IMG/VR virus record: IMGVR_UViG_3300031867_000005
Span: 32,001 to 96,000 of that record
Length of the DNA: 64,000 bases
Origin: a virus
Lineage: Duplodnaviria; Caudoviricetes
Reading direction: 5' to 3' (one strand)
Shown here in pieces: positions 3,001-62,462 of the stretch (its first letter is position 1; every line of letters starts with the position of its first letter). Below the pieces are notes generated by a model, which was given only the letters and a program-made list of their open reading frames with translations, did no database searches and was not told where the DNA came from. The position numbers and the translations under genes were made by a program.

Positions 3001-6000
3001 AGTCTGAGCATATAGGGAAAGTCTATAGCAGCCTTTTAATTAAGGCGAGGTAGATTAACGACCTACCTGAACATTACTGGAAAACATCAACACTGGTGTC
3101 CTTATGGTATAATACATAAACCATAATGGAAAAATTCTCTCTGATTGACTTGGACATCCAGAAGTGGATTACAGGGCGGAAGCTCATCGAATTTATTCGA
3201 GTAAGCACCGTGAACGACTGAGTGAGAGAACCCCATTTCGATGGGGATGCGACAGTCTCATCTTTGGTATAACTTAAAAAAAGAAGCCAAAGGCACTATA
3301 TGTGCGGCTATTTAAGATTTTCTTTAAATGGCTAAGGTATTGCGGTACGGCTTTAAAGACTATTAACTAATAGTAGTCTAAAAATCTTCTTAATTGCTGG
3401 AAAATCCTTAGAGTCTATTAGACCTAAACAATTACGAAAGTGTTGACAATTTAATTTTGAATTGTGGTAAAATATTTATAGAATTGGATAATCAGCAGCT
3501 AATCTGCTAAGGAGGAGTTTTAATTAAAAATGAGTGAAAGAAAAATTATAATTTTAGATGGAATTGAGTTTGATTATTATATATATTCCGATGGGAAATG
3601 CTAGAATAAGATTACAAATAATTTTTTAAAAGGGTCTATTAACAATGGTTTCTTAAATTATTATCTAAGAAAAGGAAAAATCCAAAAGAACATAGCAGCA
3701 CACAGACTAGTGGCTTTAATGTTCTTGGAAAACCCAAATAATCTTCCAACTGTTCAACATATTGATGGGAATAAGTTGAATAATAATGTTGATAATCTGC
3801 GTTGGGTAACTTACTCTGAAAGTTCGAAGAAAGCAGATCACTCTCACGTTAAGAACAGTCGCCCAGGTTATAAGTATTATACAGAATTAGAGAAAATTGA
3901 AGGGGAAGTGTGGGAACAATACAGAGATACTCATTTATATTTTTCTAATCTAGGAAGACTGAGGAATAGTAAGACTAATAGATTGTTAGTATAGCATACA
4001 TCAAAAGAGGGATACAATTATTATTCCCCAAAGCTTGATGGAAAGACAAAGAAAATTCTTACTCACCGTGGAGTTTATGAAAGTTTTTATAAGATTGAAC
4101 TGAAAAAAGAAGATTAGATTGATCATATAGATGGGAATAAGAAGAATAATAATTTAGAAAATTTAAGACTATGCACAGCATAGGAAAATTGTTTTATATA
4201 GATCTGAAAGATTAAAGAAAACTCCCTAAGCGGCAAGTTCAACGACTATTGGTGATGAATGTAGCCAAGTAAAACCTTTAGGTTTAAAAAAGGAGACATC
4301 TATAGTATAGATGAAGATATAGTCTAATCCCTTGCAAATATCTCGAAAGAGAGGGTAGAAATGTATAGCTAGATTTACAGAGCTAAAAGAAAACGTAGAT
4401 GCGTCTGAATCAGAATTTGATGATTTAGATTACAATAAGGTAGATAAAGCCTTAAAAAGTGTGGGCATTTCAATTAAAGATGCCCAAGGACAATTTAGAG
4501 ATTTGGACGACGTATTTCTTGAGTTGAGTTCTAAATGGGATTCTTTATCGAGAAATACACAAAGATATATTGCAACTATTGCGGCTTAAATTACGGGTCG
4601 CATTAAACCCTTTGAATTGCGGGGACTTAACTTAATTCTAGAATACTAAGCGTTCATCAACGTGGCAATGGGTAATTCCAAAGGTAAAGTAAAAAGTTTT
4701 AGAATGTTATAATCCGCAGCTAAGAATTAATTATCAGAATGGTAATTGATTAAAGTTCAACGACTATCGAAAACATAGTATAAGAGAAAGACTTATATGA
4801 AGAAGTGAGTAGAGTAGGATTTAAAAAAAATCCGAAGTGGAGGGCAATTATTTATTGGTTACAGAGAAATAATTGAAGATATAGTCTATATTTAATAAAT
4901 ATGGGTAGTAGACAACAATCACGTTTTATTGCGATTTCTTTAGAAGTCTAATTACATAGTAATATGTAATTAAAGCTCTTTGAATTGCTGGAAAATCCTA
5001 AAGCTAATTATACTAAAACAGAAGGATGAGATAAGCCTAAATGGAAAAGTTACGAAAGTAGAAAAAAATAATTAGATAATATATGGTGTAAACCTAAGTA
5101 TTACTAAAAATGGATAATCAGCAGCCAAGCTTTGATGAGGAGAAGGTTCAACGATCATTCGTAAGAAGTAGGGTTCAAGTGAATTCGAAGTGGAGAGCAT
5201 CCTATTGAGTATAAGTAGGATGAAGATATGATCTATACTTTATTGAAAGATAAAGAACAATTTATAGTTGTTTTTCTAGATTAACAAACTAGGAATAATA
5301 TATTAGGATGGAAGACTACGACAGAACAATGGAACTCGTAGAAACAGCACAAGATTCTGCTGGAAAGAGTTCTGAACAGTTTGCAAAATATCAAGACACA
5401 TTAGAGTATAAATTAAATCAATTAAAAAATACATGGGAGCAAATTAGAACAACCTTTATTAATAGCAATTTCTTTAAAGATGTTGTTGATATGGCAAATG
5501 ATGCTTTAGGTAAAATAGCAGATATTGATTTACAAAAAGCTTTACCTCTTGTTGTAATGATAACGCCATTAATAAAAAGGTCTATTGAAATTATTTCAAA
5601 AGGTTTTATGGATAGTGCAAATACTTTAGGAAAAGTTGGAAGTGTAATAGGAAAGACCTTAGGAGAGAAGTTAAATAAAACATTAAAGGATACAACGCAA
5701 AAACTTAATAACTTAGAGGTAAAGCTTAGTCTTAACCAAGCAGCTAAGAAAAAACTAGAAAAACAGATTGATGAAGTTAAAAGTAAACTGAAAGAGTTAT
5801 AGTTAGAAAAAAGAATATAGAATAATAGAAAATCAAATATAGAACAAGAACTTGATAAAATAAAAGAAAAAGAAGAAGAACTTACCACTTCTATGAAAGA
5901 AAATGCGGGAAAAAGAGATCAAATTCAAAAAAGAATGGCATAGCTTAGTGAGTCAGAAAATGGAAAAATAACTGAAGAATATAAGAATTTAGAAAAAGAA

Positions 6001-9000
6001 TTAGAAGAATTAACCGCAGAGTATGGGAATTTAGATAGAGAAAGATATAAAGCATAGAACACAAAAGATGAGGAAGCTCGTCTTTTAACAGACGTAGAAG
6101 ATTCCTTAACAACGTTAGATGAAAGAACGGAACAATATGAAGGACATTTAAGTGAACTAGAAGGAAGTCTTGGAGATGTAAATGAGAGACTTGAAGAATA
6201 GTAGGATGCAGCGGATGAATTGAATGAAAATGAAGAGCTTCTTAATGAAAGTGCTAAAAATGCATCCGATGCCTTGACTTTAGCAGGAACTACTATTGCT
6301 GGAGTCACTACAGCTTTACTTACGGGAGCAAATGCAACTGATACTTTTAAAACCGGCATGTTATCACTCGGCATTGCATTAGCTGGAATGGTTACTAAAA
6401 TAGTCAATTTCGGAATTGAAGCAGCGGTGGCTGCCGCAGTAAGTGGGGAAAGTATTGGAGTAGCTCTTGGAGAAGGACTAAAAAATGGCTTTATTGCAAC
6501 GAAAGTCGGCATTATTATTGTGGCTGCTGCAGCTGCACTTGTCGCTTTAATTACAGGAATTAAGGCTTATATGGAATTTTATGATAGATAGCATAAAACA
6601 ATAGAATAGCAACTAAAGGATGCGGAAGAGTCCTTAGAGGAACTTGAAAAGGTGGAAGCTGAAAAAAGTAATAAAGCGAGAGACGAGGCAGAAACTTATA
6701 AAAGTACCAAAAGTTTAATGGAAGAATATGATGAATTAAGTAAGAAATTAGTAAAAACGACCGAAGAACAAGAAAGATGGAATGAATTAATAGGAGAAAT
6801 AAATGAACAGTTCCCAGAAATTATAACTTCTTATGACGAAGCTAATGGCAAAATTACTTTACAAAGAGATTTATGGTAGGAAATTAACGATTTACAAAAG
6901 GAGTCTGCTTAGCAAGCTCAAATGGAGGCTAGTGTAGCTGGTTCGGCAACAGTTGGGGAAAAGAGAAGGATTGCTAATTTAGAGTTATCTTCTGAATTAG
7001 ATAAACGACATCAGACTTAGAAATCTATTAATGCACTAAAAAATATACAAAATAGTGATTATTTTGTTCTTTCTCCTGAAATGATAAAAAACACTTTTTC
7101 CAATTCTTCTCTTGCAAAAGAATATCAATAGGCTTACAAAGTTGATTTCTCTAAATTAGATGATGCCGGATGGTAGCAATTTTATAAGAATATACAAGAT
7201 TAGAATTCAGAAGGGTGGAAGACGTTATAGAAGTATCTTGATAATATAGAAGAAAAAGCAACGGATGCTTATAATCAATAGACAGCATACTATGATACTC
7301 TTGAAAAATAGAATATCTCTTCTTATTTATAGTCTGGAGGAACAGATTCTAATGTTGCCAATTTTGTGGCATCTGGAGCATATAATAAAAGAGGTTCCAA
7401 TAGTAATAAATATAATATTACGACTCAAAGTTTGGATGCTAAATCTGGATTTTTTAATAACGTCCATAATGATTACGTAGAATGGAAGCAGTTAACAGAT
7501 GATTAGAGAGAAATCCTTACAGCTATGAAAAAAACAGAAGAAGAGTGGAATAAAGAAAGGATAGATTTAGTAGATGATGCTAATTTTAATGCACAATACA
7601 GAGAAGCTGTAAAGATTTACGACGCTAATAAAAGAGCAGAGGAAATAATAAAAGCACTAAATGACTCTTAGGAAGCTTTTATTCAAGATTATATGACAAA
7701 TTACTCCTCAATGACAGAACAAGAAATGACTGTTGCTGAAGAAACCATTAAAGGATATATAGAAGGACTTGACAATGACTTAAGGGAAACTGGTCTTAGT
7801 TCATTAGCTGAATGGAAAGCAGATTTTGACTAGCAGAAAAGAGATATAGCTACACAAGTATCTAATATCTTAGATAAAGACTGGACAGATTTTTAGAATT
7901 GGACCATTGATTAGCTTTCTGCTTACAATACCCTACTTCAAGATGCGTTTAATGAATTCGGTTAGGGCGGTGGAAAAGAATACGTACAAGGACTAAATAG
8001 TCTTTTTGACGGGCTTGATCCAAGTAAAATAAACTAGGCATTAAATGAAATCAATTGGGATACTGCAAATGCTATAAACTGGGAAGAATTTAGAAAAACT
8101 TCAATTGAAAAATTGAAAGAACTAGGCATTCCAGGTGCAGAAGCCTTTTTTGATGAATGGGCTGAATATGAACAAAAATTTGGACATTTAAGTATAAGTT
8201 TAATAGATGAAGATAAAGTTGAGGAATATCTTGAAGGAATAAAAGAAAAAGTAGACGCAATAAACGGAAGTCGTGGGGATATTGCAGAGCTTGCCGCAAA
8301 AGTTAATTAGGGCATAGCATTAGATTATGATGAATATGCAAAATATGCTAAAGCTATTGAAGAAATGGGATTAACTGTTGAAGATTATCTTAATATTGAT
8401 GCAGATGGAAATATTTTAGCGAACGCAGAAAAAGTTTAGACTTTGTGGCAAGATGCTTATCAATAGTAGATCACAGATATTGAAACATAGATAAGTAATC
8501 TTGACGAAGAATATAGGATATAGTTAAATCAAATAAACGCAACACATGAGAGAAATCTTGAAGAAATAGAACTTTTAGAAATAATGAGTGAACAGACAAA
8601 AGAGCAGAAAAGATAGGAAGCAAGTTAGCATAGAATGATAGCGAATAACCTTAGAGCAGAAAAGAGATACACTTTTGCACATGTTCATGATTCAGAAGCA
8701 AAAAGAATAGAATAGGAGATAAATGGGTCAGTAGAAAGTGAAAAGAAAAGACAAGAATTAATAGATGCAGAAAATCAACGATGGGAAAATCAAAAGCAAG
8801 GCTTGATGACAGGTCGAGAATCAGCAAGACTGACTTTAGCCAAAGAACTAGATCGTTATAGAAAAACATACAATGCAGCATTTAAAGCATACCAAGAAGA
8901 TAACAAAAATTCTAATGACAAAATATTAGAAGATTAGAAAAAACTATTAGAAAACGTCGAAAAAGCTAACGAAGACTATGCAAAAACAGTTGAAGATAAT

Positions 9001-11124
9001 TAGCAAAAAGTTGCTGATGCTTGGGAGAAAGTTGCTGATGCTCAATAGAAAGTTCAAGATTCCTTAGATTAGATTACAGAAAAAGAGCAAGACGTTATCG
9101 ATAAAACTAAAGAATTAAATGATATTATATATGGTGATGGGACTTATCGTAGTTCTCTTGACCCAATGTATAACTATAACAATAGACTCGACTCAATAAA
9201 TGAAAGACTTAGTGATACAAAAGACGCTTTAGATAACTTAAATCCTTATGAAGATCCATAGCAATATATTCAATAGTATGAATAGTTGGCTCACGAAGGT
9301 TTTGTTAATCGAGCTGCTTAGAGAGAAGTTTATTAGGGAAGAATTAATAATACTTGGAATGCCGCCAATTCTGGACTATCAGATTTAATTGCAAGACAAA
9401 ATGCTAAACATGGCACTAATATGGAAGCAGATTTAGGAAAATATATTTTATTTGATGGCGAAGCATATGGAATTGATTTTAGTTACTAGGGTGCATCGGT
9501 TAATGATGAGATAAAGAAATTCTTAGAAGATCAAGTTAATATATTAAATGATAGTGCAAAGAAAATTAAGGAATTAAATAAAGCAGATAAAGAATAGTTA
9601 AAACAAATGGAAGAAATGAGAAAAAGTGCGAGAGAAAAAATAATTTCAATTGATGAGAGCTATGCTAAATATTTAGAAGACCAGGCTAAAAAAGAAGTTG
9701 ATATTGAAAAAGAAAAATATGATTCCATGAAAGAAGCTAATGATGATTATTTGTCTGCACTAGAAGACGCAATTAATAAAGAAAGAGAGTTAAGGCAAAG
9801 ACAAGATGAATGGGATAAACTTGCAACAAAAGAGAAAAAATTATCATTAATGCAAAGAGATACTTCTGGTGCTAATTAGAAAGAAATTTTAACTTTGGAA
9901 TAGGAAGTTCAAGATGATAGAGAAAAATTATTAGATTCTTCAATTAATGACGTTATTGATTCTATGAAAGAGTTATACGAATTATAGCAAGAAACAAGAG
10001 AAATGGAATTGGAATATCAAGAAAAAGTCCTCGAATCAACCAATTGGATGAAGTTAGCAGAAGAAGCTAGAAATGGAATTAATAGCGTAGATGAAGCAAT
10101 TGAAATGTTTACTAAGACAGCCTTAACAGAATATGGAGATAATATTAAAACGATTGAAGACTTAACTATGGAATAGAAAGAAGAATTGCTTGCAAAAGCA
10201 CAAGAGACTGTAGGCGGAATGATAGCTAGTTAGGAAATATTAAAGAGTAATATTAATAGTTCAGTTGATTAGTTAGGTAATGATATAGGAGTAATTACTA
10301 ATGTAACAGCTGAAGAAGTTAGCTCAACTATTCTTAGCACAAGTGAGAATTTAACTTCTGAAGCCGAGTATAATTTGTCATAGGTAGAGACTGCTGTTGA
10401 TGATGCAATTACAAAAGGAGAACAAGCTCTTACAGATGCAATTAAAGAGGTTTAGAATGCTAGGGATAATTATATTAGTGCGTTAGCAGATTTAGAAGAA
10501 GCCTAGAAAGAAGCTAGAGAAGCTGAAGCAAATGCTCGTGAGGCCGAAGGAGCTGCAAATGAAGCAAGACAACAGGCTTTGGCAGACGCCGCTTAGTATG
10601 ATGCTTTGAAATAGAAATATGGTAATTTTAATGATGATGACCGTATTAATGTAGATACTCTTAGTTCAGACCAATTGAGAGCAAATATCTATGCAGCTAT
10701 GGGAATGGCTGGCGGGACTGAATTTTTAAATGGAAAACCCTCTCCTGATGACCAAAGAAGAGTTCTTAGAGGATATCCAAATTATTATGAATCCGGCGGC
10801 CTTGTCGATTACACGGGTCCAGCTTGGGTTGATGGAACACCTTCAAAACCAGAAGCTTTCCTATCAGCAGAAGATACTCAAAGAATTGGATTTGCCGCAC
10901 AACTCCTCTCTAAAATTCCTCTCCTTAGCAGCGACGACTTTGACAACGTATCAACTTCAATTACAAATTCTTCCGTTACTAATGAAGGAAGTTTAATAGA
11001 AGTTCACATTAATATAGAGAACATTTCAAACGATTTAGACTTAGACAATGCATTAGACAGAATGAAAAATGCGATTTGGGATGCTGCAAAACCAGCTGGT
11101 TCAGCTGTAATTCTTTCAAAATAA
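1..11124 (+). CDS. Tape measure protein, 5'-partial, spliced and TAG-recoded. Predicted exons: <1-40, 336-456, 1570-1652, 3080-3087, 3343-3363, 4364-4586, 4904-4935, 5307-11124
   Basis: Joined exons keep frame and read ADFSTATQQMTAA-LRGFHMEMDEGARVTDVYSELAAHAAADVNGIAYAMSKAAS-IANNAGMSFETTAAFITNMIETTQEAP-ENI-GTALKTI-IARFTELK...RYIATIAA-GSRQQSRFIAM-MEDYDRTMEL, resembling a TP901-type tape measure core. ORF-track fragments 5308, 6220, 6652, 8113, 9607 and 10675 share one frame, interrupted by TAG where I checked, ending TAA 11122-11124. Coiled-coil and transmembrane-like segments present. Confidence 0.9.
41..335 (+). mobile_element. Group I intron 1 of tape measure gene (no ORF)
   Basis: P1 GCGGCU/GGUCGC with U.G pair; core elements AATTGCTGGAA, AATCAGCAG, GTTCAACGACTA, AAGATATAGTCT; terminal G335. 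Confidence 0.9.
457..1569 (+). mobile_element. Group I intron 2 of tape measure gene, ORF inserted in the P6 region; 3' splice site ambiguous (1569 or 1575)
   Basis: P1 GGCAU/GUGCU; core AATTGCTGGAA, AATCAGCAG, GTTCAACGACTA, ATATAGTCT; 3' domain nearly identical to intron 1. Confidence 0.82.
627..1403 (+). CDS. Intron-encoded multi-zinc-ribbon protein (258 aa), probably a homing endonuclease lacking its C-terminal nuclease domain
   Basis: GGAGGAG RBS. ORF-track pieces 612 and 945 join through TAG 867 and 1260. Repeated CxxC pairs; ends CPKCYKKISKEILSNQ. Confidence 0.75.
1653..3079 (+). mobile_element. Group I intron 3 of tape measure gene, with GIY-YIG ORF ahead of the ribozyme core
   Basis: Core at ~2740-3079 (AATTGACGGGAA, AACCCGCAG, GTTCAACGACTA, AAGATATAGTCT); terminal G3079. 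Splicing restores EAP-EN. The 5' exon ends in C rather than U. Confidence 0.8.
1749..2738 (+). CDS. GIY-YIG homing endonuclease (intron-encoded)
   Basis: N-terminal GYVYYSKNEINGKMYIG motif followed by NUMOD-like repeats. AGGAG RBS; upstream TG-A-TATACT extended -10. Confidence 0.85.
   Translation: MIVMAYGYVYYSKNEINGKMYIGKVTAQTLSSRPNYRGSGIDLKEALEEYGSKNFSIHFLAEANSSEELTQLEKYYLIYYKIPNENFYNINLATSNSEQSNYFNKNNKKGTNLRDIICYNIKTKETYVFNNLIQFCREHGFSRGCIFNVMSGQRVTHKDCVFWYSDYPISSDALNWIINYKLKTTYKTKYIKIAEVKEELSNCYKKAQNKLEKFEFHGYYIEDNKEIKIDWKELEKFQSLIYRDGESPKPEKVIDTVELNTEDDKKFEDITRPHEYVLVSKDHTLYFSYNEINNLTKIYTDLSARLVRQAINRKQKTVMNRKYQLIILD
3088..3342 (+). mobile_element. Group I intron 4 of tape measure gene (no ORF; core sequence differs from the other six)
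   Basis: P1 ACAU/GUGU; core GTGAACGACTGA...GCGACAGTCT, P3 TTCTCTC/GAGAGAA; terminal G3342. Splicing restores ENI-GTALKT. Confidence 0.82.
3364..4363 (+). mobile_element. Group I intron 5 of tape measure gene, carrying an HNH ORF
   Basis: P1 AGACUAU/GUAGUCU; standard P/Q/R/S core; terminal G4363. Splicing restores KTI-IARF. Confidence 0.88.
3530..4207 (+). CDS. Intron-encoded HNH homing endonuclease with two tandem HNH units (225 aa)
   Basis: GGAGGAG RBS; motifs HRLVA...VQHIDGNKLNNNVDNLRW and HRGVY...IDHIDGNKKNNNLENLRL; open frame if TAG=Gln; ends TGA. Confidence 0.85.
4587..4903 (+). mobile_element. Group I intron 6 of tape measure gene (no ORF)
   Basis: P1 UGCGGCU/GGUCGCA; core AATTGCGGGGA, AATCCGCAG, GTTCAACGACTA, AAGATATAGTCT; terminal G4903. 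Confidence 0.88.
4936..5306 (+). mobile_element. Group I intron 7 of tape measure gene (no ORF)
   Basis: P1 GAU|UUC...GAAGUC; core with compensatory P7 change (GACGATCA-type R, GATATGATCT S); terminal G5306. Splicing restores FIAM-MEDY. Confidence 0.85.
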
Positions 11125-11176: not shown

Positions 11177-13669
11177 ATGCAAGATTTCACAGGTTTTCGT
11201 TTTGGTTAGGTTCATTCTGAAGACCTTCATTTAATCGTTGTTAGTTCAAGTAATAGGTATATTAAGACTTTATTGCCTACGCTCAAGGACCATACAACAG
11301 AAGTCCCTGGCGGCAACGGGTCTTATTACTTTGGACAAACTTTTTCGACGCAAGAATTTACTTTAAATATTGCTTTTGATTCAGTTGGAGAAAGAGATTG
11401 GAGAAGAATTTCAAATTTATTTAGTAATGATAAGCCACAAGACTTAGTCTTTGATGAATAGCCATTTAAAACATATAGAGCAAAATTAAAATCAAAACCA
11501 GATTTTAAATTCGTTTGTTTTATTGATAAATCAACTGGTGAACGAATTTATAAAGGTGAAGGAACTTTGAATTTTATTTGTTATTACCCTTATGCTTTTG
11601 GATTTAATAAATACGTAGTCAGGGCCGCGGATTATTATAAATGCTTATAGCCTTCTCAAATTTTAACAGGTGCTGTAAGTCAAAATCCTTATGAAGAAAA
11701 AAGAAAAAGAGAAACAAACTTATGGGGGACTAAAAAGTTTTATAATGTGAATTAGAATATGAAAACTCCTTGGAAAGGAGGCTATCCATCTTTAGAGCAG
11801 GTTCAACAAGGTGAATTATATTTTAATGACCCAGTAACTAATAAAAGAACTATAATTGATACTAGAAGTTATTTTAATAACATTCCCGAATGGGAAATTG
11901 CCGCAAAATTACTTTATACGCCAACTTTAGATTATGATAGAGATTTAATTTTTATGCCTTAGTATAGTAAAACTAATTACTATAATATGGATTTAGGATT
12001 AACTAGAGAAAATGGAGTTATAGGAAGTAGATTATTAGTTTATAACCCTGGCGATGTCCCAATCGATTTTGAACTTAAATTAACTGGAATTTTTCAGAAG
12101 CTTAGAAATTTTGATTAGCATGATAAAGATTATTATAGATTTAGAATTAGTCGTTATAACGTTCAAAGACTAACTATTGAATAGGCTGTAGATTGGTGCG
12201 GCCTTACTACTCATGATAGGGATGAAAATATTAGCTATAAGTATGGAACTAGATATTTTACGATTTTAGAAAATGATGGTGAAGGAAATATTATTAAAAG
12301 AGATTTAAATAAATCACATCCTGAACACACTTATTATGTTGAACCAATTCCGAGAGAAAAATTAGGAGATTTTATTCGTTCTTTTTATTGGCAGACAATG
12401 TAGATTCAATAGTCTTGGAATGAAGATGGCGATTGTCTTGATTTAGGAGATTTGTGTGACTTTTGGGAGAGGGGAAAAGAGTTTGCGAATCAATATGAAG
12501 AATATAGAGAGTAGTGTATTTCAGAAGAGGAAGAGTTTGAATTATATTGGGATACTTTAGATAAAGCTATACTATCTTTATATGAAAAACATTTTCTTGA
12601 TGAAAAAGGAGAGGCTAAAATTCCTTTCTTAACTTACAAATAGTTTAAAGATAATTATATTAATAGAGGTCCTGAATGCTTATATGATGTTAAAGATAAT
12701 AGATATTATGGAGAATATAATTTTAATTTATACACAATCCCAGAGTATTATACTGATGATTATCTTGAAATAAATAATAACGATTTTGACAAAATTCTTA
12801 AGCATAATTGTAATAAAAAAGATTGTAATAGGTTTGTAGAAGAATCCAATTCATCAACTATTAAACCTCTTTTCATTGACTCTGAACGCAGAATGGTGTA
12901 TAATATAAATGAGCCAGAAGTAGATTCAGATGAAAAATTTCATAATTTTTATAATTTTAAACCATCAAAGATTATTTTTAATGATAATATAGAAAGAGGT
13001 CATTGGTTCAAAATTCCGCCAGGCTGGTCTTTAATCGATATAACTCCAATTATAGATGAAGACATGTGGAATAGAAAAAGATGGAATGAAGCAAGACCGT
13101 TTACTTGGGGTGAATCAAATGAAGAATTTAGAATAACATTTGATAAAGCTTATGAACAAGCCGCAAGAAATTATTTATATGAGAATTATGATAGAATTAA
13201 TAATTCCAATTTAATTAAAGAAATTTGGGGAATTACTCTAAATGATAAGGATGAAGACATAACACCATCAATAATTAATTCAGATAAAAGAAAGAAAATT
13301 AAAGAGGAATTAACCCTTGAAGAAATTGAAAGACTAATGCCTTTTAGAAGATGGTTTAATGATAGTTATTATGAAGTAGCTTATGGAGAAGAAAAAGCTA
13401 ATTAGCTAGAAATAACTGACCGTCTTAATACATTCAAGAATAAATTATTAAAAAGAGAATTAACAAATATTGAGTATGGTTTTCTTAAAACATTAAATGA
13501 TTATTGGAGAGTTTCAAAAACTGATATAAATGGATTACCAGCTGGCACAATTGATGATTGGTATTGGTATGCAAATAGTTACATATGGGCTAACTTTCCA
13601 CCAGTTTTTTGGGCTTATACAGATTTATTAAATAATGCACAAATAAAATATACTCCATTATTTTATTAA
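11177..13669 (+). CDS. Distal tail (Dit)-like protein with large insertions, ~830 aa
   Basis: Directly follows the tape measure gene. N-terminus MQDFTGFRFG...LPTLKDHTTEVPGGNGSYYFG, internal VYNPGDVPIDF, C-terminus IKYTPLFY. ORF pieces 11273, 11759 and 12893 share a frame and join through TAG. Confidence 0.75.
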
Positions 13670-13683
13670 GAGGTGAGATAAAA

Positions 13684-16600
13684 GTGAGTATTCAGAAGAA
13701 AGAATACGAATTGAGTGTTTGGAGTGAAACGCTTGGAGAGCATGGACAAAAAAGTGAAAGAAAGGAATATATTATTGGCGCCCATGATATGGAATATCAA
13801 GGTCGGGCAACTGGCATTAAATTTGTAAAAAAGTTAAATGGAACTCATGAATTAACTTTTTAGATGCCAGATAAATGGTATGATAGTGAGAAAGGAGATT
13901 TTGTAAGAAATGAATTTATTGACTAGCTTTTTAATGAAAGGAAGCTTAAATTACATTATAGAGGAGAATGGTATGAGTTTTATATAAAAAGTATTGCTGA
14001 TGCTAAAAAATTTAAATCTTATATAAAAACTTATACTTGTTCTGATGCTTTCATTGATGAACTTAGTAGAAACGGTTACGGGATTACTTTTGATGAAGCA
14101 TTGTATAACAATGTTGAAGAAATGGGAATTTTTACGGAAGAAATTTTAGAAGATAGTGTTTGGTATTACTCTCCAGAAAACAACTGGGGAGATTTTACTG
14201 AATATTCAGAAGAAAAATTATATAAAATACCTATTAAATTTTTTGATAATTTAGAAGCTTATGAATTAAATTATAATATAGATGATGCAAAAGGACAAAT
14301 TATAAATTTAGTTACTAATGAAAAAAGAGATATTGAAATGGGTGATGACTTAGCTAGAGAAAAAGGCTATTATTGGGATTAGATGAGTAATGATGGTAGT
14401 ATTAAACACCCCTTGATTGGAGAAAGAAAAACGGTTGAAAATGATGGGTATATATATGTTTTTATGTCTTGCCTTGATTTTTGTTATAAGACTACAAGCG
14501 ATGATGGATTAATCGCTACAGAAGAAGTGTAGTATTATGGAGATACTAAAAAATTTGCAGTCGCACCAACATCTGTTGACCCATCAGCTTTAATTCAATT
14601 TATGGCCTTTCCGAAAGATGCTATAATTGAAATTGATGAAGCTGGAATGATTGTTAATAAGGATTATCATTATATAATGACAATCGGCCAATGGAATGAG
14701 TATTTAGAATAGACTAGTGATTATTTTTATAAATTTGAAAGTTTAAGCAATGAAAAAAGGAAATATTTTTTAGCAAGGGGAGAAGCTAATAGCAGAATGG
14801 CTTTATCAGAAAGATAGATTACTGGAAATTGGACTGTATATTATGAAGATTATCTTTCTAAAATCGGTGATACTGATGTTTTAACAGGAAAAAAAATTAG
14901 TATTACAAATCATACTGAAATCAATATTACTGATGAAATCGATTAGTATGTAACTGTTTATAATAATAAAAGTAGTGAGTTTAATGATTTGTATGTAAAT
15001 CCTACTGAAAATTGGAAAGAAGGAGAAAATTAGGATAAAGACTCTTATAATTATAGAGTTTGTTCTGTTAATAAAACAAGATAGATAATTCCTCAATTAG
15101 CTAGAAATTTAGTTGAAAATGCTATTGGAATAAAATCAGAAGACGGATGGGCGGTCGCAGCAACAGTTGATAACATTAATATTGGTTCTACAACAATTAA
15201 ATTTATAAAAAAAGAAAACGAAAATATTGGTTAGCTTGAAATTACTCCTACTAGTGATACAAATGATGACAATAAAAGGTATAGAACTATTATAAATTTT
15301 GGTTTAGTGGGGCAAGAATATGAAATTACTGCGGATAAAATATATTGTATTGGAGTAAAGGGAATCTTTGATGATAATGATAAAGTTATTATTGGAAAAG
15401 GAGGAATGATTTCTTCTGGTGAATATAAAGTAGAAGAAGTTTTTTCGCTTAATTGTTTACAAATAAATAATAATTTTTATTTTATAAAATTTAAAAATAA
15501 TATAAAAAATCCTTATTTTGCTATTCAATTATCAAATAATTCAAAAAGTTTAAGATATATAGATTAGGTTTATTTCTTTGAAGCATATACAAAAGGGATA
15601 GACTAGTTTGGGGAAAAAGCTGTATATAAATATAGCGGCCGAACCATTTTTAATGGTATTTTAGACGGCGTTTCTGGAAATAATAATTTTAGTATAAGTA
15701 GATCATATACCGAAGAAGAAATGAGAGAAAGAGTCATATTTGAAAATGATATAATGCCGGGAGATACCTATGAATATAAAGAATATTTTATTCAATAGCT
15801 ATCTGCAAATTCTTACGTAGCGGACACCTACAAACAAAAAGAATTTTTGTCTCCTGATGCACCTGAATTAGAAGATATTGATAATACAAATTTGAGTTAT
15901 AGAAATTTACCTTATAGCTCAAAAGATTTTACTGATGATGATTTAATTATATCTACTAAATATATTGATTTAAATAAATGTCAATATTATAATTTTAATA
16001 ATGAGCTAAAAGCTTGTGATTGTAGCTATGGCAACAAAGATAATTACAATAAATTTTGTATGTATCAAAAATATGGATATTGTCCTTATTTATTCTAGTC
16101 AGAGAAGCACTGTAGAAAGATTAGAACGTTAAAAGGAGAAAAATCAAATAGATTTAATTTGACTTAGGAAATAGGAAAAGTTTTCAAAGTGTATCCATGT
16201 TACTGGATAAATCACGAGGAAAATGGAAAGACAAAAATAAAAGAAAGAGAAGATAAAAATGGAGAAAAATATGAAATGTTAGATAAAAGAGTGTATTATA
16301 TAACAGAAAAGGGCAAGGAAAATAAATTAGGTTTTAGATATGAAATTAATTTATCTAATATTTCAAGAACGATTAAAAGTGATTAGATTGTGAGTAAATT
16401 ATATGTTTAGGATGTTGATAGTAGTTTATCAAAAACTGGGTTAAGTTCTATTAAAACTGCTCCAGATAATATCTCTAAAGATAGCTTTATTATTGATTTT
16501 TCTTATTATATTGCAAAAGGCATGTTATCTGAAAAACAGGTCTATGCTGATTTATATGGAACTAACGAAGGAGATATGGCTTATTTGAGAAAATTAGGTC

Positions 16601-19515
16601 ATTATAACGAAGAATATGATAAAATTTCTAATTTAATAATAAATCTGTCTTCTCAGTCTTTTACTGAATTGGAAGCTAATGTTAAAGTAAATATAGATGG
16701 CATTGAAGCAGCGCAAAAAGAATTATATAAATTAAAAAAATAGGCAGATAAATATAAAACTCTTAATAAAACTATTGAATTATAGCAAGAAATTAGTAAT
16801 AGTAAACAAGAATTAATAAATAGGTATAATGAAGCATATCAAATGAGTATTTAGCAGATTACAGAAGAAATTAATAGTTATACAGAAGCCTAGAAAGAAA
16901 AATTAAAGGAAAAAGTAGCTGAAAGAACTGCGTATATAAAATGGGCTTAGGAAATGTTAGATAAAGAAATATATAAAAACTATATTTAGCAAGCAGAACA
17001 AATATCAATTGATTTTTCAATTATTAGTAAATTGAAAGATCATAAAGTTCCACTTGATTATATAAATTATTTAGAAGAAGAAACATTAAGAATTAATCAA
17101 TTAATAAATAGTGCCCAAAATCAAACTTATTTAAATTATTTAGTTAAAATTAATGAGCAAGTTGCTATTATAAATTAGCTAACAAAAGAATTAATGTGTG
17201 ATGAAAATTATAATTTTGAAAATTTTTTAAATAATAATGAGACTATTTCTGATAATCTTTATGATAAAATTTTTGGAAATTTACCAATTGCAGATTTTAA
17301 AGAAACGGATTGGTATAAAAAACATACATATTTGAAATACGGAATGCTAGGTCAATATAACAGAGAATACCAACAAATTCAAGAGTGGCGAAAACAATAG
17401 GCTGAACATTTGAAATAGATAAATCTTCTATCTTATAGATTTTTCCAAAAATATGAACCTTATTTAAAAGAGGGAACTTGGAGTGATAGTAATTATTTAA
17501 CGGATAACGCATACTATTTCGGGGCGAAAGAAGTAGCCACATAGGGCGCTATTCCAAAAATTGAATATAACATTTCAGTAATCGATTTACAAGATTTACC
17601 AGAATATGAAGAATATGACTTTGATTTAGCTGATACAACTTATGTTGAAGATATAGGTATGTTTGGAATAAATGAGAAAACAGGATTGCCAAATAGATTA
17701 AAGGTTTTAATTTCTGAAATTTCTTACGACTTAGATTAGCCAAAGAATAATTCAATTAAAGTATAGAATTTTACAACTTAGTTCGAAGACTTATTCCAAT
17801 AGGTTAGTGCTTCTGTTTAGTCACTAAGCTTTAACGAAAATATATATAAACGTTCTTCTAATTTTACTTCAAATCAAAGTATTAAAGAAGAAAGTTTATA
17901 GGGAGCATTAGACAATAATAATGTAACTTTATTAAAAACACAAGAAAATAATATTGAATTAGACGCAGAAGGACAATTTGGAAGTGATATAAATAATCAT
18001 AGCAATAAATATAAATTAAATGGATAGGGAATGTTTTTCTCTAATAATGGCGGCCAAAGTTGGGAAGTTGGTGTTGGTCCTAGTGGTATTAATGCTGATT
18101 ATATAAAAGTTGGAACTCTTGATGCTGGCAAGATAAAAATTGTTGATAATGATTATTTATATTTTTTATGGGATAAAGGTGGCATTTTTTCCTTTAGGGA
18201 GCCATAGTCATAGTCAACAAGTGAAAAAATAAATTTTAATGATTATGCCGTTTTTAATAAACATGGGCTATCATTAATTGAAAATGGAAAAATTAGATTA
18301 AGAGCTGGATATAGTAATGTTGGAGAGAATGGTGTCTATAATGTTGAAGATCCAACAACTGGAAATATAGGTTTTTATTTGTTTGATAATTCAGGAAAAC
18401 CTATTTTTTCTACCGAAGGTTCACCCACTGAAGAAGGTGATAATTATAGTGCTAGAATATTATTATCAGGTGAGATGTTAGCATCGGCGACGGCAAATGC
18501 TAATCAACAAATAGAAACTTTTTATTATACTAAAAAACTTTAGCTTATAACCTTAAATATTAAATACACTAAAACGCAAGAAGAAATTATAGTTGAAAAT
18601 ACAGGAGATCTAGAATCATTAGGCACTGCTAATGTTTTTAATGATACAGAAAAAAGCTCTTTCGTTTCCATAGGACTGCATCGATACAATGATATATATT
18701 GCTTTACTGAAGGTGGTAAGTATTATAAATTATTGATTGATAACAGCGTATATATATATTTTTTGACAACTATCAAAGATGGAGAATTCTATCCACCTGA
18801 TAACCAAGATTTAAGTAATGCTTATGGGATAACTTATTATGACAACAATGGACGGAAAGTAGAAACTTATAAGAATACATCTTATCAATATTATGAAATT
18901 GAAAATAATATTAAGATAATTTTATTAGATCGACATTCAAAGTAGACATCAAGTGGAAATACGACAATTTCAACAGGAGTTTTTATTAATAATAAAATTA
19001 TGAATCCTAATGATACAGATGAAGACATAAGGCTTTTTAGTTGCGTTTCTCTTGATAATAAAAGAAAAATAAATAATCTTTTTACAGTGTATAGAGACGG
19101 TCGCCTAATGATAGGAGGAAATTTTGAAGGAGAAGCTGATGACATAATTTCAATTAATGATAAATTACATTGGGATGAATCTAATTAGAGTAATACTATT
19201 AGAATTAAAGATGGACAAATGTATTTAGGAAACGACTCATTAACGAATATGATTAGTGGAGCTGCGGCAAGTCTTCCTAGGCACAGTCATAGTTTTAATA
19301 GACATAATGATTATTATCGTTTTTCTAATGATGGCAGATCGCCATTAACAGGCGAATATAATACTTATTCAGTCGAGCTTGTGATTCCAATGAAGGATTC
19401 CAATGGCAATCCGGTGAATGATCCCAATAATAATCCCGTAACATCTTCAACAACTTTATATATACATGAATATCTGGACGATAGCACAGATTATACCGGA
19501 GAGATAGGAGGTTAA
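13684..19515 (+). CDS. Large tail/baseplate protein (Tal or central-fibre type), ~1940 aa
   Basis: GTG start with GAGGTG RBS. Nine ORF-track fragments (14101 to 19219) share one frame. Tail-type motif GINADYIKVGTLDAGKIKI; position after Dit. Confidence 0.75.
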
Positions 19516-49343: not shown

Positions 49344-49610
49344 ATAAAATTATTCCTCCTTATTAGATTTTTCTTTTTCTACTCCTTGTCCTTTATTAAA
49401 ATTTTCTGGAGATACTACAACAGCATCCCTAAATCTACTATAGGTATAGCATTTTTCAGTTACGTCAACATTTTCAATTTCCTGAACAGTCCAATCACAG
49501 TCAATGAACTGTGCGCCCTTACCATCTTCTACTTGTTTAATTGCTTTACCATTTCAGGCGTTAGAATAAAATCCATTACATATTTCATTTAAATCCTCTC
49601 CTTTCTTAAT

Positions 49611-50195
49611 TTATATTTTGAAAAAAATTGCATAATTTTCTAAATCAGGAATGATATACTTTTCACCATTAAAATACTCAAAGGAAACATTAATCAATTT
49701 ATATCCATCATTATAAGGAATTACATGATAGCATTGTTGATTATAACTTCCTCTTAAGTCAATTCCTTTAATTTTTTTGTCTTTTTCATATCTACCATCT
49801 ATTAAATAGTTAATTTTTGTTATAATTTCTTTTCTTTTTCTATTTAACTCATTAGAAACTAGAATTTCATCAACTGTCATTCCTGTATAGAGAATGATTT
49901 CTTTTTTTGAGCCAAATTTCTTTCTTATTTCAGAACAGATTAAATTAACAGTATCAAGATTTTTATAGTATAAAGGGTCTCCACCACTAAGAACAAAATT
50001 CTTTACATATGGTTTATCTAGAGATTCTAGAATTTCTTCCATTACTTTAAAAGTAAATTCTTTTCCGTAATTGAAATCCCATGTTTGGGGATTATGACAT
50101 TCTTCACAGTGATTGGCACAACCACTTACAAAGAGGGTTGTGCTAATACCATGAGAGTTACCAGTATCGAATTTTATTATTTCACTATAGTTCAC
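49611..50195 (-). CDS. nrdG: Anaerobic ribonucleotide reductase activating enzyme
   Basis: LFVSGCANHCEECHNPQTWDF, LSGGDP, LRGSYNQ. Confidence 0.92.
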   Translation of the reverse strand: MNYSEIIKFDTGNSHGISTTLFVSGCANHCEECHNPQTWDFNYGKEFTFKVMEEILESLDKPYVKNFVLSGGDPLYYKNLDTVNLICSEIRKKFGSKKEIILYTGMTVDEILVSNELNRKRKEIITKINYLIDGRYEKDKKIKGIDLRGSYNQQCYHVIPYNDGYKLINVSFEYFNGEKYIIPDLENYAIFFKI

Positions 50196-50280
50196 TTTAT
50201 TCTCTCCTTTTATTATTATTTAATTAAGTTAAAGAGGAACTGCTCTGAGTGAGTTTAGATAGATTTATCCCTATGACAAG

Positions 50281-50316
50281 AAAAAAATAAGAGAGTAGGT
50301 TTAGAACCATACTCTC
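50281..50316 (-). terminator. Rho-independent terminator closing the ncRNA
   Basis: GAGAGTATGGTTCTAAACCTACTCTC followed by TTATTTTTTT. Confidence 0.75.
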
Positions 50317-50882
50317 TAAGAACTGCTCCTCGTGTCGTCTGAGATGAGTTCATCCATTGGATATAATGACTTTAACGTGCAGGTATACACGCCTTGAAAC
50401 TGGAAAAGAATATTTCGTCAAAATCCCTGCTTACCATTCTCCTAAGCAGAACCAGTTTCTACGCTTTTCATGGTCCTCCCCCAACTTTTATAGTAATTAT
50501 GTATACTATAGGTCTTAGATACCTTTTTAACTTTTAGATAATTACATTTTTCAAGCGGTCTTTATCTAACGTGTGATTTCTTTCTCACCAGCTCGCAATA
50601 CTATATACAGCATGGAGGAATAAAGTCTATCTCCCGACAGTCCTTATTCCTCTTTTTTGTATCGGAGAGCTGTTTAGAGCATTCCATCTCTCCGTAAGAT
50701 AAAAGATTATCTTAATTTGTCCTTAAACAAAGGACTATTCACTTGTAACCCAATTGTTATAAATTGGAGGTAATCACCAGTTGAGCATCTGGCGAAATAT
50801 TAGTCCACAGACTAAGCTCATTTTTACCGCTAATTTTATGTAATTGAAGTTGGAGTTGGAGTTATCTCTAACTTTTTCTTAC
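50281..50882 (-). ncRNA. Large (~600 nt) structured non-coding RNA, family unassigned
   Basis: No long ORF; own consensus promoter (50889-50917) and terminator (50281-50316); at least a dozen visible stem-loops. Confidence 0.7.
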
Positions 50883-50888
50883 AATATA

Positions 50889-50917
50889 ATTATATCATTA
50901 TTTTAATGAAAAGTCAA
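50889..50917 (-). promoter_or_regulatory. SigA-type promoter driving the ncRNA
   Basis: TTGACT-N17-TATAAT with TG extension, directly after the nrdD stop. Confidence 0.8.
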
Positions 50918-53900
50918 TTAATTCAAATGCTTTACCCTATTAGCTAGATCTTCGCTTCTACCTTGGTTAGGGGTATAGTTACTGATGTAGCCGCAGATCC
51001 TATAACTCGTATGAACTTTTTCTGGGTCTGTTTCCCCACAACATGGACATTTCCATCTTACAGTTCCATCTTCTGCAAACACTTTCTCAAAATCATATCC
51101 TTCAAAACCACAAACTCCACAAGTTGAAATTTCAGAGTTAATTTCAGCATACAAACATTCATTACTAATATGTTCAATTATTTCTAACATTGCATCTATA
51201 TTGTTGCTCATATTAGGAACTTCAACATAGGAAATTGAACCGCTTAATGTTTTATTACTAAATTGAGCTTCATCGGTTAATTTAGTGAAAGCATCGACTT
51301 TATCTTTTACAAAATGATGGTAAGAATTTGTAATATAATTACGTTTAGTTCCATCTCCAACGTGTCCAAATTTATTAATACAAGCTTTAGCAAATTTATC
51401 TGTTAAAGTTTCCATCATTTCTACCCTCGGTTTCCCGATATTTATTAGGGGATTAGACTATATCTTTATCTCAATTAAGATACCTTACATTTCGGTTTTT
51501 TGATATTATCTCACCTACATTTCACCCTATGATTGGGTCTACTCAGTTCTACAATATTGTAGCTTTTCCCTAGTCGTTAGACATTTATTAATTATTATTC
51601 ATTATTCATCATACTCAAAATAATATCCAGTTCTTGAAAAATGGACTGTCTTTTTACAATGCCGAGAAATAGTGCTTACACTTACTCCATATTTTTTAGC
51701 ACATTCACATATCGAGCCGATATGATCTATAATTTCACCATTAGAATTTAAAACACGAACAGGATGAGACTAAGAATCTTCATAGCCTTTAGTGTTTACT
51801 ATTAATCCATCATCATGTGCTTTCTAAGAATTTTCAGAATATGTTGTCCAATATAAATTTTCAATTCTGTTATCGGTTTTTATATTATTCATATGCCCAA
51901 CTATTGGTAAATTTTCTGGATTTGGAATAAAGGCCTATGCTATTAATCTATGTATTCTACAAGAATGATTTTTTCCATCCTTCATAGTAACATTACAATA
52001 TATGTATCCACTTGGCATTATAATTCTATTCTTTTTAGGAATAAATAACTAATTTGAAGTCAATTTATAAACATGACCATTTTTTGAAATATAATCCGTT
52101 TCACTTCCTTTAATTAGAATTATTTTTCCTTCGTTCTTTTCTATTTCTTCCTTAGCTAAAGTTCCATTTACAATAGCTTATCACCACCTTTTTTATTTAA
52201 ATGAATAATAATTAATTTTAGTACGGTGTTATCTCTGCCCTCTCGGGTTTAGAATTTCTTACCAGCTTATTTTTTTTATTCAGCTATGACCGTTTAGTAA
52301 GGATCGCTTTAATAATCACTTATTAAAGCCCCATGATTTTAGGAGTTCCATATAAACCAGCGGCCAATCCAGTATTTTTCTTAAATTCTGCATTTGAGTT
52401 ATTGAGATAATCAAGAATTTTATGAGCTAATACTTTACCTTTTCCTTCAAATTGATTTTCTCCAGTAATATATTTAACACACTCATAAAGTCCTGCATAT
52501 CCCAATGAAATTGATGGACGGCCGCTATAAACTTCTTTTTCAAGTGTATCTTCTGGGTTGAGTTTTGTTAGTCCACCAAATACCCACAGTAAAGGAGACT
52601 GACCAGCTTTAATCTTAGCAATATGGTTGGCACGCCATAACATATCTCTATGAGCAATGTCAAGATAGTAGTCAAGATTAGAGAAAAGAATTTCTTCCTT
52701 TCTGTCAGGATTATTTTCCATTGCAATAAAAGGAAGATTTAAACTTTGAACTCCAAGATTCCATCTGCCCCATAATTCATGAGCATTAGTTTCTGGATTG
52801 ATATACTCGTGTAATAGTGATCTACAACCCATCGGAGGCGTAGGAACACCTTTTAGTTCCTTATGAATCTTAACGCTCAAATAATCAGGAACTAATCTCT
52901 TTGCACTACACTCCGCACACAATTTTGTTATATCATAGTATTTCCCTCCTTTCATTGTATCCTCATCAAGAAAATACAAAATCTTTGGGAAATTAGGATT
53001 CGAATAAATACCATTCTTTTGCTTAATTCCTTGGATTCTTTGTTTTATAAATTCCTTAAAAACAAGAATTAAATCCTCAGTATAATTACTATCCTCATTT
53101 AACCAAACAGAAACAGATAAGAACGCCGCTTGACCTGTCCCAGCACAAAGAGTATTATTCTGATATAAAAAGGTTTGCATACCATCCTTAATTTCATTAG
53201 ACAAGTCTTCTTCAACCATTGCTTTCTTTACAGCGTCATCTACATTATATTTTTCGTATTTCTTTTCAAACTTCTTTCTACTTACATCAACAAATTTAGC
53301 AAGATGAAGAAGATTGATGGTTATACCCCCAAACTAAAGGTTAGTACTATGAGTGAGGACCTAAGTTGCTACCGTGCAAGCTGTTCTAAAACTCTTTGGC
53401 TTTTCAATCCAAATGCCATTAATCTCACAACCTTTAAACAATTCTTCTAGGTTTAAAAGACAACAGTTTGACATAGGTCTTGCACTATAGGCCATATCAT
53501 GGAAGTAGACTGCACCCTTATCATGAGCTTCCAAGCAATCTTTAGGAAGCATTTCTCTCATAAATTCCTTACTAGGAATCTCAGCTAAATAGGCACTTTT
53601 AATATGAGTTAGATTGGGGTTCTTGTTACCGTTTTCCTGAGCAATTTCAGGACTTACAAACAAAACCTTTTCGATTTCAGTTGGATTAGTCAAAGCTTTC
53701 TCCTTTTTTACTTTATAAGAACTATATTCTCTCGCTACTTGGGGCGGTGCCTCACGATAAAGGACACTCATTACCAGATTTTCAATCCTATTATTCTCAA
53801 TTTTATTATCCTTTGCGTAAAACCAAATTAAATCTTCAATTTCATCTACAATTGTATCAATTTCTTTAAAGTTAGGATATGTTACTTGGTTATAAGACTG

Positions 53901-53978
53901 AATAATTGCATTTCTAATCTTATTACGGTCATACTTCTGTATCAACCCATCTTCTTTGATTACTTCCAAAACAATCAA
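50918..53978 (-). CDS. nrdD: Anaerobic ribonucleoside-triphosphate reductase, spliced (exons 53978-52341 and 51415-50918), two TAG codons
   Basis: ATP cone; YFHD; NCCL; [13 protein letters not shown]...LQFGG (both Q encoded by TAG); MGCRS; junction YGTP-METL; RICGYI glycyl-radical loop. Confidence 0.92.
51416..52340 (-). mobile_element. Group I intron in nrdD carrying an HNH ORF
   Basis: P1 UCCU/GGGG and P10 AUG/CAU; core TGTCTAACGACTA...AAGATATAGTCT; terminal G. Confidence 0.88.
51602..52174 (-). CDS. Intron-encoded HNH/NUMOD homing endonuclease (~190 aa; likely ATT start)
   Basis: [49 protein letters not shown] followed by in-frame ATT; open with TAG=Gln. Confidence 0.8.
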
Positions 53979-53997
53979 CTCCTTTTCTTTTTTTTAA

Positions 53998-60066: not shown

Positions 60067-60095
60067 ATTATAACATAAATTAAAAGAAAAGTCAA
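60067..60095 (-). promoter_or_regulatory. SigA-type promoter
   Basis: TTGACT-N17-TATAAT with TG extension; -35 overlaps the RNase H stop codon. Confidence 0.75.
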
Positions 60096-61094: not shown

Positions 61095-61994
61095 TCAAAT
61101 CTCTCCTAAAATCTCATATTTTCTTTTATCATACTCCCAATTCCCAAAAAAGTCAATATGAAAACCATATTGTTGTCTTAAATTAGAAGGTATTATATAA
61201 TTATTTATATTATCTTCTTGTGGTAAGTTAGCCCAATTCTGTAGACTAAAAAGAAAATTAATATCATCTAAAAGCTAAGGCTTTTCCTTTTCATAATAAT
61301 AGAAAACTAATCCTTTATAGTCTTCAATCTATCTAAGTAACTCTTGGTCTTCTTCAATTTTTCCAGTCAATTTAATTAATGCTAAATTATTAATATGTAA
61401 TAAAAAATAATTATCGCCCCATTCATTATTTTTTCCATTTAAAAACTTCACAAAGGAGACAATTTTTTCATCATTAAACTAAATTTTGTCTTTTTTTAAA
61501 TATCCAATATGATAAAAAATCTATGAAGTTTGAATCTACTCAGGGGTAAAATCTATAAGAGGTTTCCAAGTAGGACATAGGAAATTCTTAAATTTTTTCT
61601 TATCATCTATTACATTATATAGAGGATTAACTGGCTATACAATTATACACTATTTTTTTCTTTGAAGAGAATTAGTCTTTAAAATACTAATTCTTTTATC
61701 TTTACCTAAATATTTTTTAGTATTAAGAGTTTTTCCTAATATATAAATTTGAAAATTGAACTAACAAATTGCCTAAATATTTTTTAATATTTTATAACAA
61801 ATTAAACTCAACAGGTCATCCTTATAATCAATAATAAAAATACGTTCGGAACAGTTTTGAAATTGAAATTCAAAATTATTCATTTTTCTGTTAATTAACC
61901 AATTTGTTTGTTCTTCAATAGACCAATTTTTATTGGGATAATATTTTAAATTTAAATCGTATAGAACCAATTTTCGTTTTGCTTCAACGAGCAT
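61095..61994 (-). CDS. Hypothetical protein (299 aa, TAG-rich)
   Basis: GAGGTG RBS; frame open through TAG codons to TGA 61095-61097, abutting the next ATG. Confidence 0.6.
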
Positions 61995-62025
61995 TTATAT
62001 CACCTCATCTTCACTCTCTAATAAA

Positions 62026-62190
62026 AGTATATCAAAAAATAAGGAAAAAGTCAATATATTTATCAAAGAAGAGATTGTTTGTTATTGCGTAGCAATAACA
62101 AACAACAGATTACTTTTACGAAGTAAAAGTAATCTGAGAACAAAGTATTGATATTATATATTTGACTTTTTTTAAAAAAAATGTTATTAT
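62026..62190. promoter_or_regulatory. Divergent SigA-type promoters with intervening palindromes
   Basis: - strand TTGACT-N17-TATACT (62026-62054); + strand TTGACT-N17-TATTAT (62162-62190); two long hairpins between them. Confidence 0.7.
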
Positions 62191-62213
62191 ATTAATATAA
62201 GGAGATGATTAAA

Positions 62214-62462
62214 ATGACCTTAACTTATAAATTGTATAGGGATGTTGTAGGTAGGACGGCAGCATGTCTTAATTAGGAGTTAAGAAAAATGAATATTTCT
62301 ATTAGAATTATAAATAAAAATAGAATGATAAACGGAAATAGTCTTGTTGGTATTTTATAGTCACATATGAGATTTGGTGATGTTATAAAAGTAATTTTTG
62401 AGGAAGAGAAGCAATCCGAAAGAATAAGAGAATTATTCAATGAAATAGGGAGGGAAATATAA
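62214..62462 (+). CDS. HPr-like protein lacking the His15 equivalent (82 aa)
   Basis: VVGRTAACL...RMINGNSLVGILQSHMRFGDVIKV matches the HPr pattern; AGGAG RBS; two TAG codons. Confidence 0.6.

Follow-up and report, generated by a model that had tools for sequence, protein, structure and literature searches.

What kind of element fills the stretch of about 600 nt, free of any long ORF, that separates nrdD from nrdG in the genome of an uncultured phage of ~179 kb? The window analyzed, that is, the whole 64-kb stretch of DNA, comprises C1:32001–96000 of the phage's 178,685-bp IMG/VR virus record (C1); positions without a prefix are those of the window. An initial annotation had described the stretch as an ornate non-coding RNA with its own promoter and terminator, lying on the − strand (50917..50283).

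Gene context, transcription signals, and coding potential

The coordinates and strand of that annotation proved correct, with nrdD on one side of the cassette and nrdG on the other on the − strand, and the assignment of both neighbors was confirmed by a sequence motif, Pfam matches, and homologues. The last exon of nrdD (50918..51418, −) encodes the glycyl-radical motif RICGY and ends in a stop codon 1 nt before the −35 box of the cassette; Pfam NRDD and Gly_radical matches were obtained on a product identical to that of nrdD. The nrdG gene (49611..50195, −), which encodes the anaerobic ribonucleotide reductase activase, a radical SAM protein, begins with GTG, matches PF04055 and PF13353, and has 1246 homologues.

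Two minor features were noted in the flanking genes. The small gene between nrdG and a C5 methylase gene (49344–49610, −), which encodes 79 aa in L018, the closest relative represented by DNA, is split by a frameshift in the window, with its N-terminal 15 residues and the remainder in different frames; a pseudogene, a programmed shift, or an error of assembly would each account for this. Upstream, nrdD is interrupted by an intron (51419–52322, −) whose HNH endonuclease ORF contains four TAG codons in frame; this intron was not called group I by Rfam at E ≤ 1, and its 3' end closely resembles that of a short L018 intron that Rfam scored as group I.

The consensus promoter claimed for the cassette was found at 50889..50917 (−) and is of the sigma-A type, with TTGACT (50917..50912), a 17-nt spacer, and a TG-extended −10 box TATAAT (50894..50889). 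It matches the consensus at 11 of 12 positions with TG upstream, making it an extended −10 promoter close to consensus. About 75 sites in the 178,685-bp genome make up the near-consensus family (at most one mismatch) to which it belongs, and ten of them drive the − strand replication module that contains the locus. Consistent with this membership, BLAST found at least 10 look-alikes of the first ~45 nt within the phage genome. The predicted transcription start lies near 50882, giving a predicted non-coding transcript of ~600 nt (50283..50882, −). At its end lies the intrinsic terminator that had also been claimed (50283..50317, −), a 12-bp hairpin with one bulged U (50317..50290) followed by UA and U7; the pair probabilities of the hairpin were 0.91–0.96, and a strict consensus scan missed the terminator because of the bulge. 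The remaining tail of the cassette (50216..50282, −) holds a weak promoter-like site (50279..50252, 9/12) before the ribosome-binding site of nrdG.

Elsewhere in the genome, the + strand of C1:113–178 kb carries more than 50 near-consensus TG-extended promoters, one per 0.2–1.5 kb, which fall into two sub-families with conserved flanks, as exemplified by the repeated upstream box ...TTTGTGCA...TTGCC at C1:167–178 kb. This array looks like a dense early or host-takeover region.

In this phage TAG serves as a sense codon, which mattered for the ORF test of the stretch. When only TAA and TGA were taken as stops, in-frame TAG occurred in 81 ORFs of at least 150 codons, and ORFs of 1942–2047 codons held 39–56 each, with 56 in one 1942-codon ORF; examples in the window are 5299–11124 and 13636–19515 (+) and 52323–53993 (−). 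TAG was frequent in the structural genes of the + strand and infrequent in the replication genes of the − strand, with two in-frame TAG codons in nrdD exon 1, and a TAG codon of the relative L020 aligned with a CAA (Gln) codon of the window nrdD. The genome carries 8–11 tRNA genes (C1:132741–137699 and 153844–153920), comprising Gln-UUG, three Lys-UUU, Gly, Pro, Leu-UAG, Ile, and possibly Met and Glu, and no tRNA with a CUA anticodon was found in it despite the recoding of TAG.

Under table 11, TAG=Q, or TGA=W, the stretch contained no ORF of more than 50 aa, which agrees with the absence of a long ORF in the initial annotation and led us to reject a hidden protein gene. Frame 1 had 15 stops in 240 codons, the stop density was random-like, and no residual coding signal was detected in any frame or code. 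When a spurious 53-aa ORF of the + strand was used as a proxy query, no match was obtained among 5.8 billion proteins.

Predicted fold and comparison with known RNA families

Folding analysis revealed that the stretch is predicted to be considerably more stable than expected from its composition. Over 621 nt, the minimum free energy (MFE) was −177.4 kcal/mol, compared with −135.5 ± 7.8 kcal/mol for dinucleotide shuffles (z −5.36). Domain I alone (50865..50470, 396 nt) showed a z-score of −7.22, with none of 100 shuffles as stable, and the 3' 187 nt were weaker (z −2.24). Among 150-nt windows, only 50600–50800 stood out (z −4.2 to −6.3), most others being near z 0. When 620-nt windows of the same genome were ranked after GC correction, the stretch came second of 370, level with or beyond windows containing group I introns. 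The − strand fold was 22 kcal/mol more stable than that of the + strand, which also gave z −4.8, and the predicted helices contain about 14 G-U pairs; this strand bias and the G-U pairs fit an RNA read from the − strand. By these folding statistics, the predicted structure exceeds chance, although thermodynamic z-scores alone can mislead.

The GC content of the stretch (0.34–0.36, genome mean 0.31) resembles that of gaps holding tRNAs or introns, other gaps without an ORF of at least 70 codons being mostly at 0.21–0.32. The earlier description of a GC-richer tract packed with stems is thus upheld by the GC content (0.36 vs 0.31) and the z-score of the whole. All of the stems it listed are present in the sequence, and all but one recur in the MFE/MEA fold with pair probabilities of 0.5–1.0; the exception, TTAGATAA/TTATCTAA, competes with the long-range helices.

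The predicted fold is dominated by domain I (50474..50860, −), a closed multi-branch domain of ~390 nt with about 11 hairpins. Its three closing helices, P1 (50855..50847 with 50487..50479, plus 50860..50858 with 50476..50474), P2 (50845..50838 with 50547..50540), and P3 (50831..50826 with 50559..50554), had pair probabilities of 0.94–0.97. The core of the domain is a cluster of four very stable hairpins (50615..50735, −; pair probabilities 0.95–1.00) at 50735..50719, 50714..50695, 50694..50663, and 50652..50615, the last of which has 16 bp and is capped by a GGGA tetraloop. The 3' domain contains a long hairpin (50396..50459, −), in which GAAACTGG/CCAGTTTC enclose CTGCTTA/TAAGCAG with pair probabilities of 0.85–0.98, and two more hairpins (50320..50393, −) at 50393..50374 and 50351..50320 with pair probabilities of 0.89–0.95.

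The sole 620-nt window with a more negative GC-corrected residual than the stretch was 61621–62240 (C1:93621), which showed it on both strands at 22% GC and coincides with a twin-hairpin region flagged in the initial annotation.

The recoding of TAG may be biologically relevant, and the predicted loops offer one speculative connection to the RNA. The RNA contains four UCUAA motifs (50678, 50538, 50519, and 50305, −) in or near predicted loops: one lies in a 7-nt loop AUCUAAG, one in the 7-nt loop AUCUAAA of an alternative 5-bp stem, and the remaining two in the large loop of the 50694..50663 hairpin and at the tip of the terminator. Both 7-nt loops look like an anticodon loop containing CUA. 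The enrichment of the motif is marginal (4 vs 1.24 expected, P 0.04 uncorrected), and a link between the RNA and the decoding of TAG as sense through these loops is a more speculative idea. A suppressor tRNA hidden in the RNA was rejected, as none was found by ARAGORN, Rfam, or a custom scan for anticodon loops.

The initial annotation had considered membership in a class such as ROOL or GOLLD, which was not borne out. Rfam cmscan of 50100–51000, run with lax filters at E ≤ 10, yielded no match to any family, including GOLLD (RF01998), OLE (RF01071), raiA (RF03072), HEARO (RF02033), and riboswitch, T-box, and ribosomal or other leader models. The ROOL model (RF03087) had no match at E ≤ 10 locally and none at the gathering score genome-wide. 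At the gathering score, the whole genome gave group I introns and tRNAs only, none of them in the stretch. No tRNA, tmRNA, RNase P, 6S, or SRP RNA was detected at E ≤ 10, nor any tRNA or tmRNA by ARAGORN in the 64-kb window.

The annotation's statement that signatures of group I and II introns, tmRNA, and RNase P are lacking therefore holds for Rfam at E ≤ 10 and for ARAGORN. The group I model (RF00028), which found no match in the stretch at E ≤ 10, scored 55–99 bits on five introns of the phage genome and 29 bits (E 2.6e-5) on an intron of a divergent relative in an equal-size search of 901 nt; this negative is meaningful because even a divergent intron is still scored in a search of that size. 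The group II models (RF00029 and D1–D4) likewise gave no match at E ≤ 10, and the sole AGC...GUU hairpin, a domain V candidate at 50593..50568, was rejected on inspection for its 2 × 2 internal loop and 8-nt loop, which are unlike domain V. Intron identity was also rejected on gene structure: nrdD has a normal C-terminus and stop, the nrdG start is intact, and the two genes abut in L018 without the element.

Comparison with known large RNAs of phages revealed likeness in a loose sense only, in size, architecture, and carrier. ROOL is carried by phages and mobile DNA of low-GC Firmicutes and is abundantly transcribed with no known function (PMC5737381, PMC12286853); it is similar in size (~580 nt) and, like the fold predicted here, has many hairpins emanating from a closed core. 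Unlike ROOL, the cassette has no covariance-model match and does not lie beside tRNA genes, the tRNA cluster being 50 kb away (tRNAs at C1:132.7–137.7 and 153.8 kb and none in the 64-kb window, the RNA at 82.3–82.9 kb). GOLLD, too, is large and ornate, is borne by phages, and forms a transcription unit of its own (PMC12286853), as is predicted for the cassette RNA; however, GOLLD measures ~800 nt, often lies beside or around tRNAs, and has a model that the cassette does not match. The lncRNAs of Staphylococcus phage K (Kayvirus), whose function is unknown, come likewise from a large, intron-rich phage of low-GC Firmicutes (PMC9241854), but they were identified from RNA-seq and have tRNA genes nearby, whereas the cassette matches no deposited phage. 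Finally, the group I introns of this phage itself (at least six, five detected by Rfam and one in nrdD by inspection) are comparable in predicted stability and GC content; unlike them, the cassette has no RF00028 match, interrupts no gene, and has its own promoter.

Insertion site and search for homologues

Comparison with relatives revealed that the site just after nrdD is variable. In L018, whose nrdG is 64% identical and whose gene order is the same, the nrdD stop lies ~15 nt from the nrdG start, so that in our phage a tract of ~700 nt, beginning with the −35 box and reaching almost to the nrdG ribosome-binding site, represents an insertion. Among four relatives whose NrdD falls in the same 90% cluster, L020 carries a free-standing endonuclease-like ORF of ~900 nt directly after the nrdD stop (L020:5716–6620), at the same site as the cassette, and L021, L055, and L056 have a short spacer after nrdD followed by the methylase gene. 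The cassette is thus absent from this site in L018, L020, L021, L055, and L056 and is sporadic among relatives, whereas in two near-identical assemblies from other datasets the nrdD–nrdG gap is exactly 722 nt, as here. Since the relatives differ at this position, we regard it as an insertion hot spot.

Like phage morons, the cassette has its own promoter and terminator, separates two conserved genes, and is missing in close relatives, and like free-standing homing-endonuclease cassettes, it occupies a site that in L020 holds an endonuclease-like gene. Unlike both, its cargo is a predicted structured RNA without an ORF. From this layout, the cassette appears to be a lineage-specific insertion of the moron type.

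The L020 ORF at the shared site holds at least six in-frame TAG codons. Another variable feature of nrdD is a group I intron of ~250 nt right after the RICG codons, which is present in L018 (2141–2392), L020 (5391–5642), and L056 (~1128–1380) and missing from this glycyl-radical site in the window nrdD.

No homologue of the stretch was found among deposited phages and plasmids, and within the phage's own genome only the promoter region was repeated, with no second copy of the RNA. BLAST and nhmmer searches against all fetched relatives detected no sequence like the RNA, and four large IMG/VR records with relatives of nrdG contained no homologue. Searches of 401 genomes from the class of one Clostridia MAG (399 of them scored) and of 401 genomes from the class of a Paenibacillus, about 800 genomes sampled from two classes of Firmicutes, returned only AT-rich chance matches of 20–45 nt. 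Exact 18–20-mers, used in seven viral, two metagenome, and two genome scans, likewise returned chance matches only, namely a tail-fibre-like coding repeat, an unrelated ribosome-binding site, and high-GC genes.

Sister RNAs were also sought among the long gaps without an ORF of at least 70 codons, and Rfam detected nothing in four gap regions. The gap at C1:156177–156939 was rejected as a sister RNA because small early genes occupy it. On a simple expectation, the shared loop words AUGCUC and a boxA-like motif were attributed to chance. The RNA is therefore presented as a single-lineage candidate, put forward on its folding statistics and gene layout.

Role of the cassette and alternative explanations

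The reading we favor, with confidence close to even, is that the stretch represents an independent, moron-like gene whose product is a large structured non-coding RNA of an uncatalogued and so far orphan type. It would form a self-contained transcription unit inserted into the nrdD–nrdG operon in this lineage. Transcription by the host sigma-A RNA polymerase would start at the strong extended −10 promoter, a member of the phage's early/middle family, and the ~600-nt transcript would fold into a compact 390-nt multi-hairpin domain, three long-range helices that close it, and three or four 3' hairpins. Transcription would stop at the intrinsic terminator, and the product would act as RNA rather than as message. 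We infer that a discrete form of this RNA builds up and works in trans; like other large ornate RNAs, it might be a scaffold that binds proteins or assembles with itself. Transcripts from nrdD would also enter the cassette, as no terminator lies upstream of its promoter, and because its own terminator precedes nrdG, the cassette would set the level of the nrdG (and methylase) message by read-through.

Against a stand-alone RNA gene, the 3' third is weakly structured (z −2.2), no homologue was found, and an nrdG without a good promoter fits a role in cis equally well. The locus also tolerates decay, as the neighboring small gene is frameshifted.

A more specific and more tentative proposal is that the RNA is the first representative of a hitherto unseen class of large ornate RNAs in phages, defined by a closed domain of ~390 nt with a 3' tail and a strong host-type promoter, expressed in early or mid-infection and carried on a mobile cassette; it might serve in trans as a scaffold or decoy, or form a self-assembling particle like ROOL or GOLLD. 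To our knowledge, large structured RNAs whose role is unknown, such as ROOL, GOLLD, OLE, and raiA, are uncommon, and phages carry several of them. A further, unrelated ornate RNA with a clean promoter–RNA–terminator layout would be a compact test case for the roles of such RNAs in infection, and an RNA-only moron at a homing-endonuclease hot spot would mean that structured RNAs are able to travel as accessory cargo. The value of the candidate hinges on relatives or transcripts.

The organization of transcription around the cassette bears on the strongest of the other explanations. In front of many promoters of the phage stands an inverted repeat in which the −35 box TTGACT doubles as the 3' arm and a T run comes next; such sites would act as combined terminator–promoter modules; examples on the − strand have −35 boxes at 60095, 54026, 48414, and 31667 (C1:92095, 86026, 80414, and 63667), and several + strand sites are of the same kind. 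The promoter of the RNA has no such upstream arm, so transcription from nrdD should continue into the cassette and stop at the cassette terminator, which would split the nrdD–nrdG operon as a side effect. The initial annotation had noted that nrdG has no obvious promoter of its own, and indeed only the 9/12 promoter-like site follows the terminator, with the next terminator–promoter module located after the methylase gene (C1:80414). Given the weak site and the position of that module, nrdG probably depends largely on read-through of the cassette terminator.

The promoter at 50917 could accordingly be the real promoter of nrdG and the methylase gene, with the structured tract and terminator serving as a conditional stop that tunes nrdG and with no function in trans. 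We consider this rather unlikely, although it fits the absence of such a module between the cassette and nrdG, and activation of NrdD needs nrdG, so read-through must occur. However, riboswitch, T-box, and leader families were unmatched at E ≤ 10, inspection revealed no convincing antiterminator partner for the 5' arm of the terminator stem, and the other leaders of the promoter family measure only ~20–40 nt. In addition, L018 expresses nrdG by direct coupling to nrdD, without the element.

Somewhat more doubtful is the view that the cassette is a functionless relic of an early-gene, endonuclease, or intron cassette that lost its ORF in an insertion hot spot, with residual or fortuitous structure. 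The endonuclease-like ORF at the same site in L020, the abundance of introns and endonucleases in the genome, the sporadic occurrence of the element among relatives, and the frameshift in the adjacent 79-aa gene are all compatible with decay, and the promoter and first ~25 transcribed nt resemble those of early genes. However, residual coding signal is absent in every frame and code, the stretch shows no similarity to introns of the phage or its relatives and no RF00028 match at E ≤ 10, and its length is identical in three independent assemblies. Raised GC content and a nested closed domain with a z-score of −7.2 would also be unexpected in a decaying AT-rich spacer.

It is very improbable that the clustered inverted repeats act at the DNA level, as a replication origin or as a recombination or packaging signal. 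Short inverted repeats are indeed numerous, the neighboring genes belong to replication, and the + strand also beats its shuffles (z −4.8), but no direct repeats, iterons, or AT-rich unwinding tract are present and the GC content lies above the genome mean. The G-U pairs, which make the − strand 22 kcal/mol more stable, and the promoter and terminator, both oriented for a − strand transcript, are further arguments against such an element.

That the stretch encodes one or more micro-proteins, for example from a 9-codon ORF (17 codons with TAG=Q) after GGAGGA at 50480, is hardly credible: a purine-rich Shine-Dalgarno-like motif does precede an ATG at about 50473, but the spacing from GGAGG to ATG is only ~3 nt, every other ORF in the stretch lacks a ribosome-binding site, an exact-word scan with the motif matched only an unrelated ribosome-binding site, and the motif itself forms the 3' side of closing helix P1 (P 0.97).
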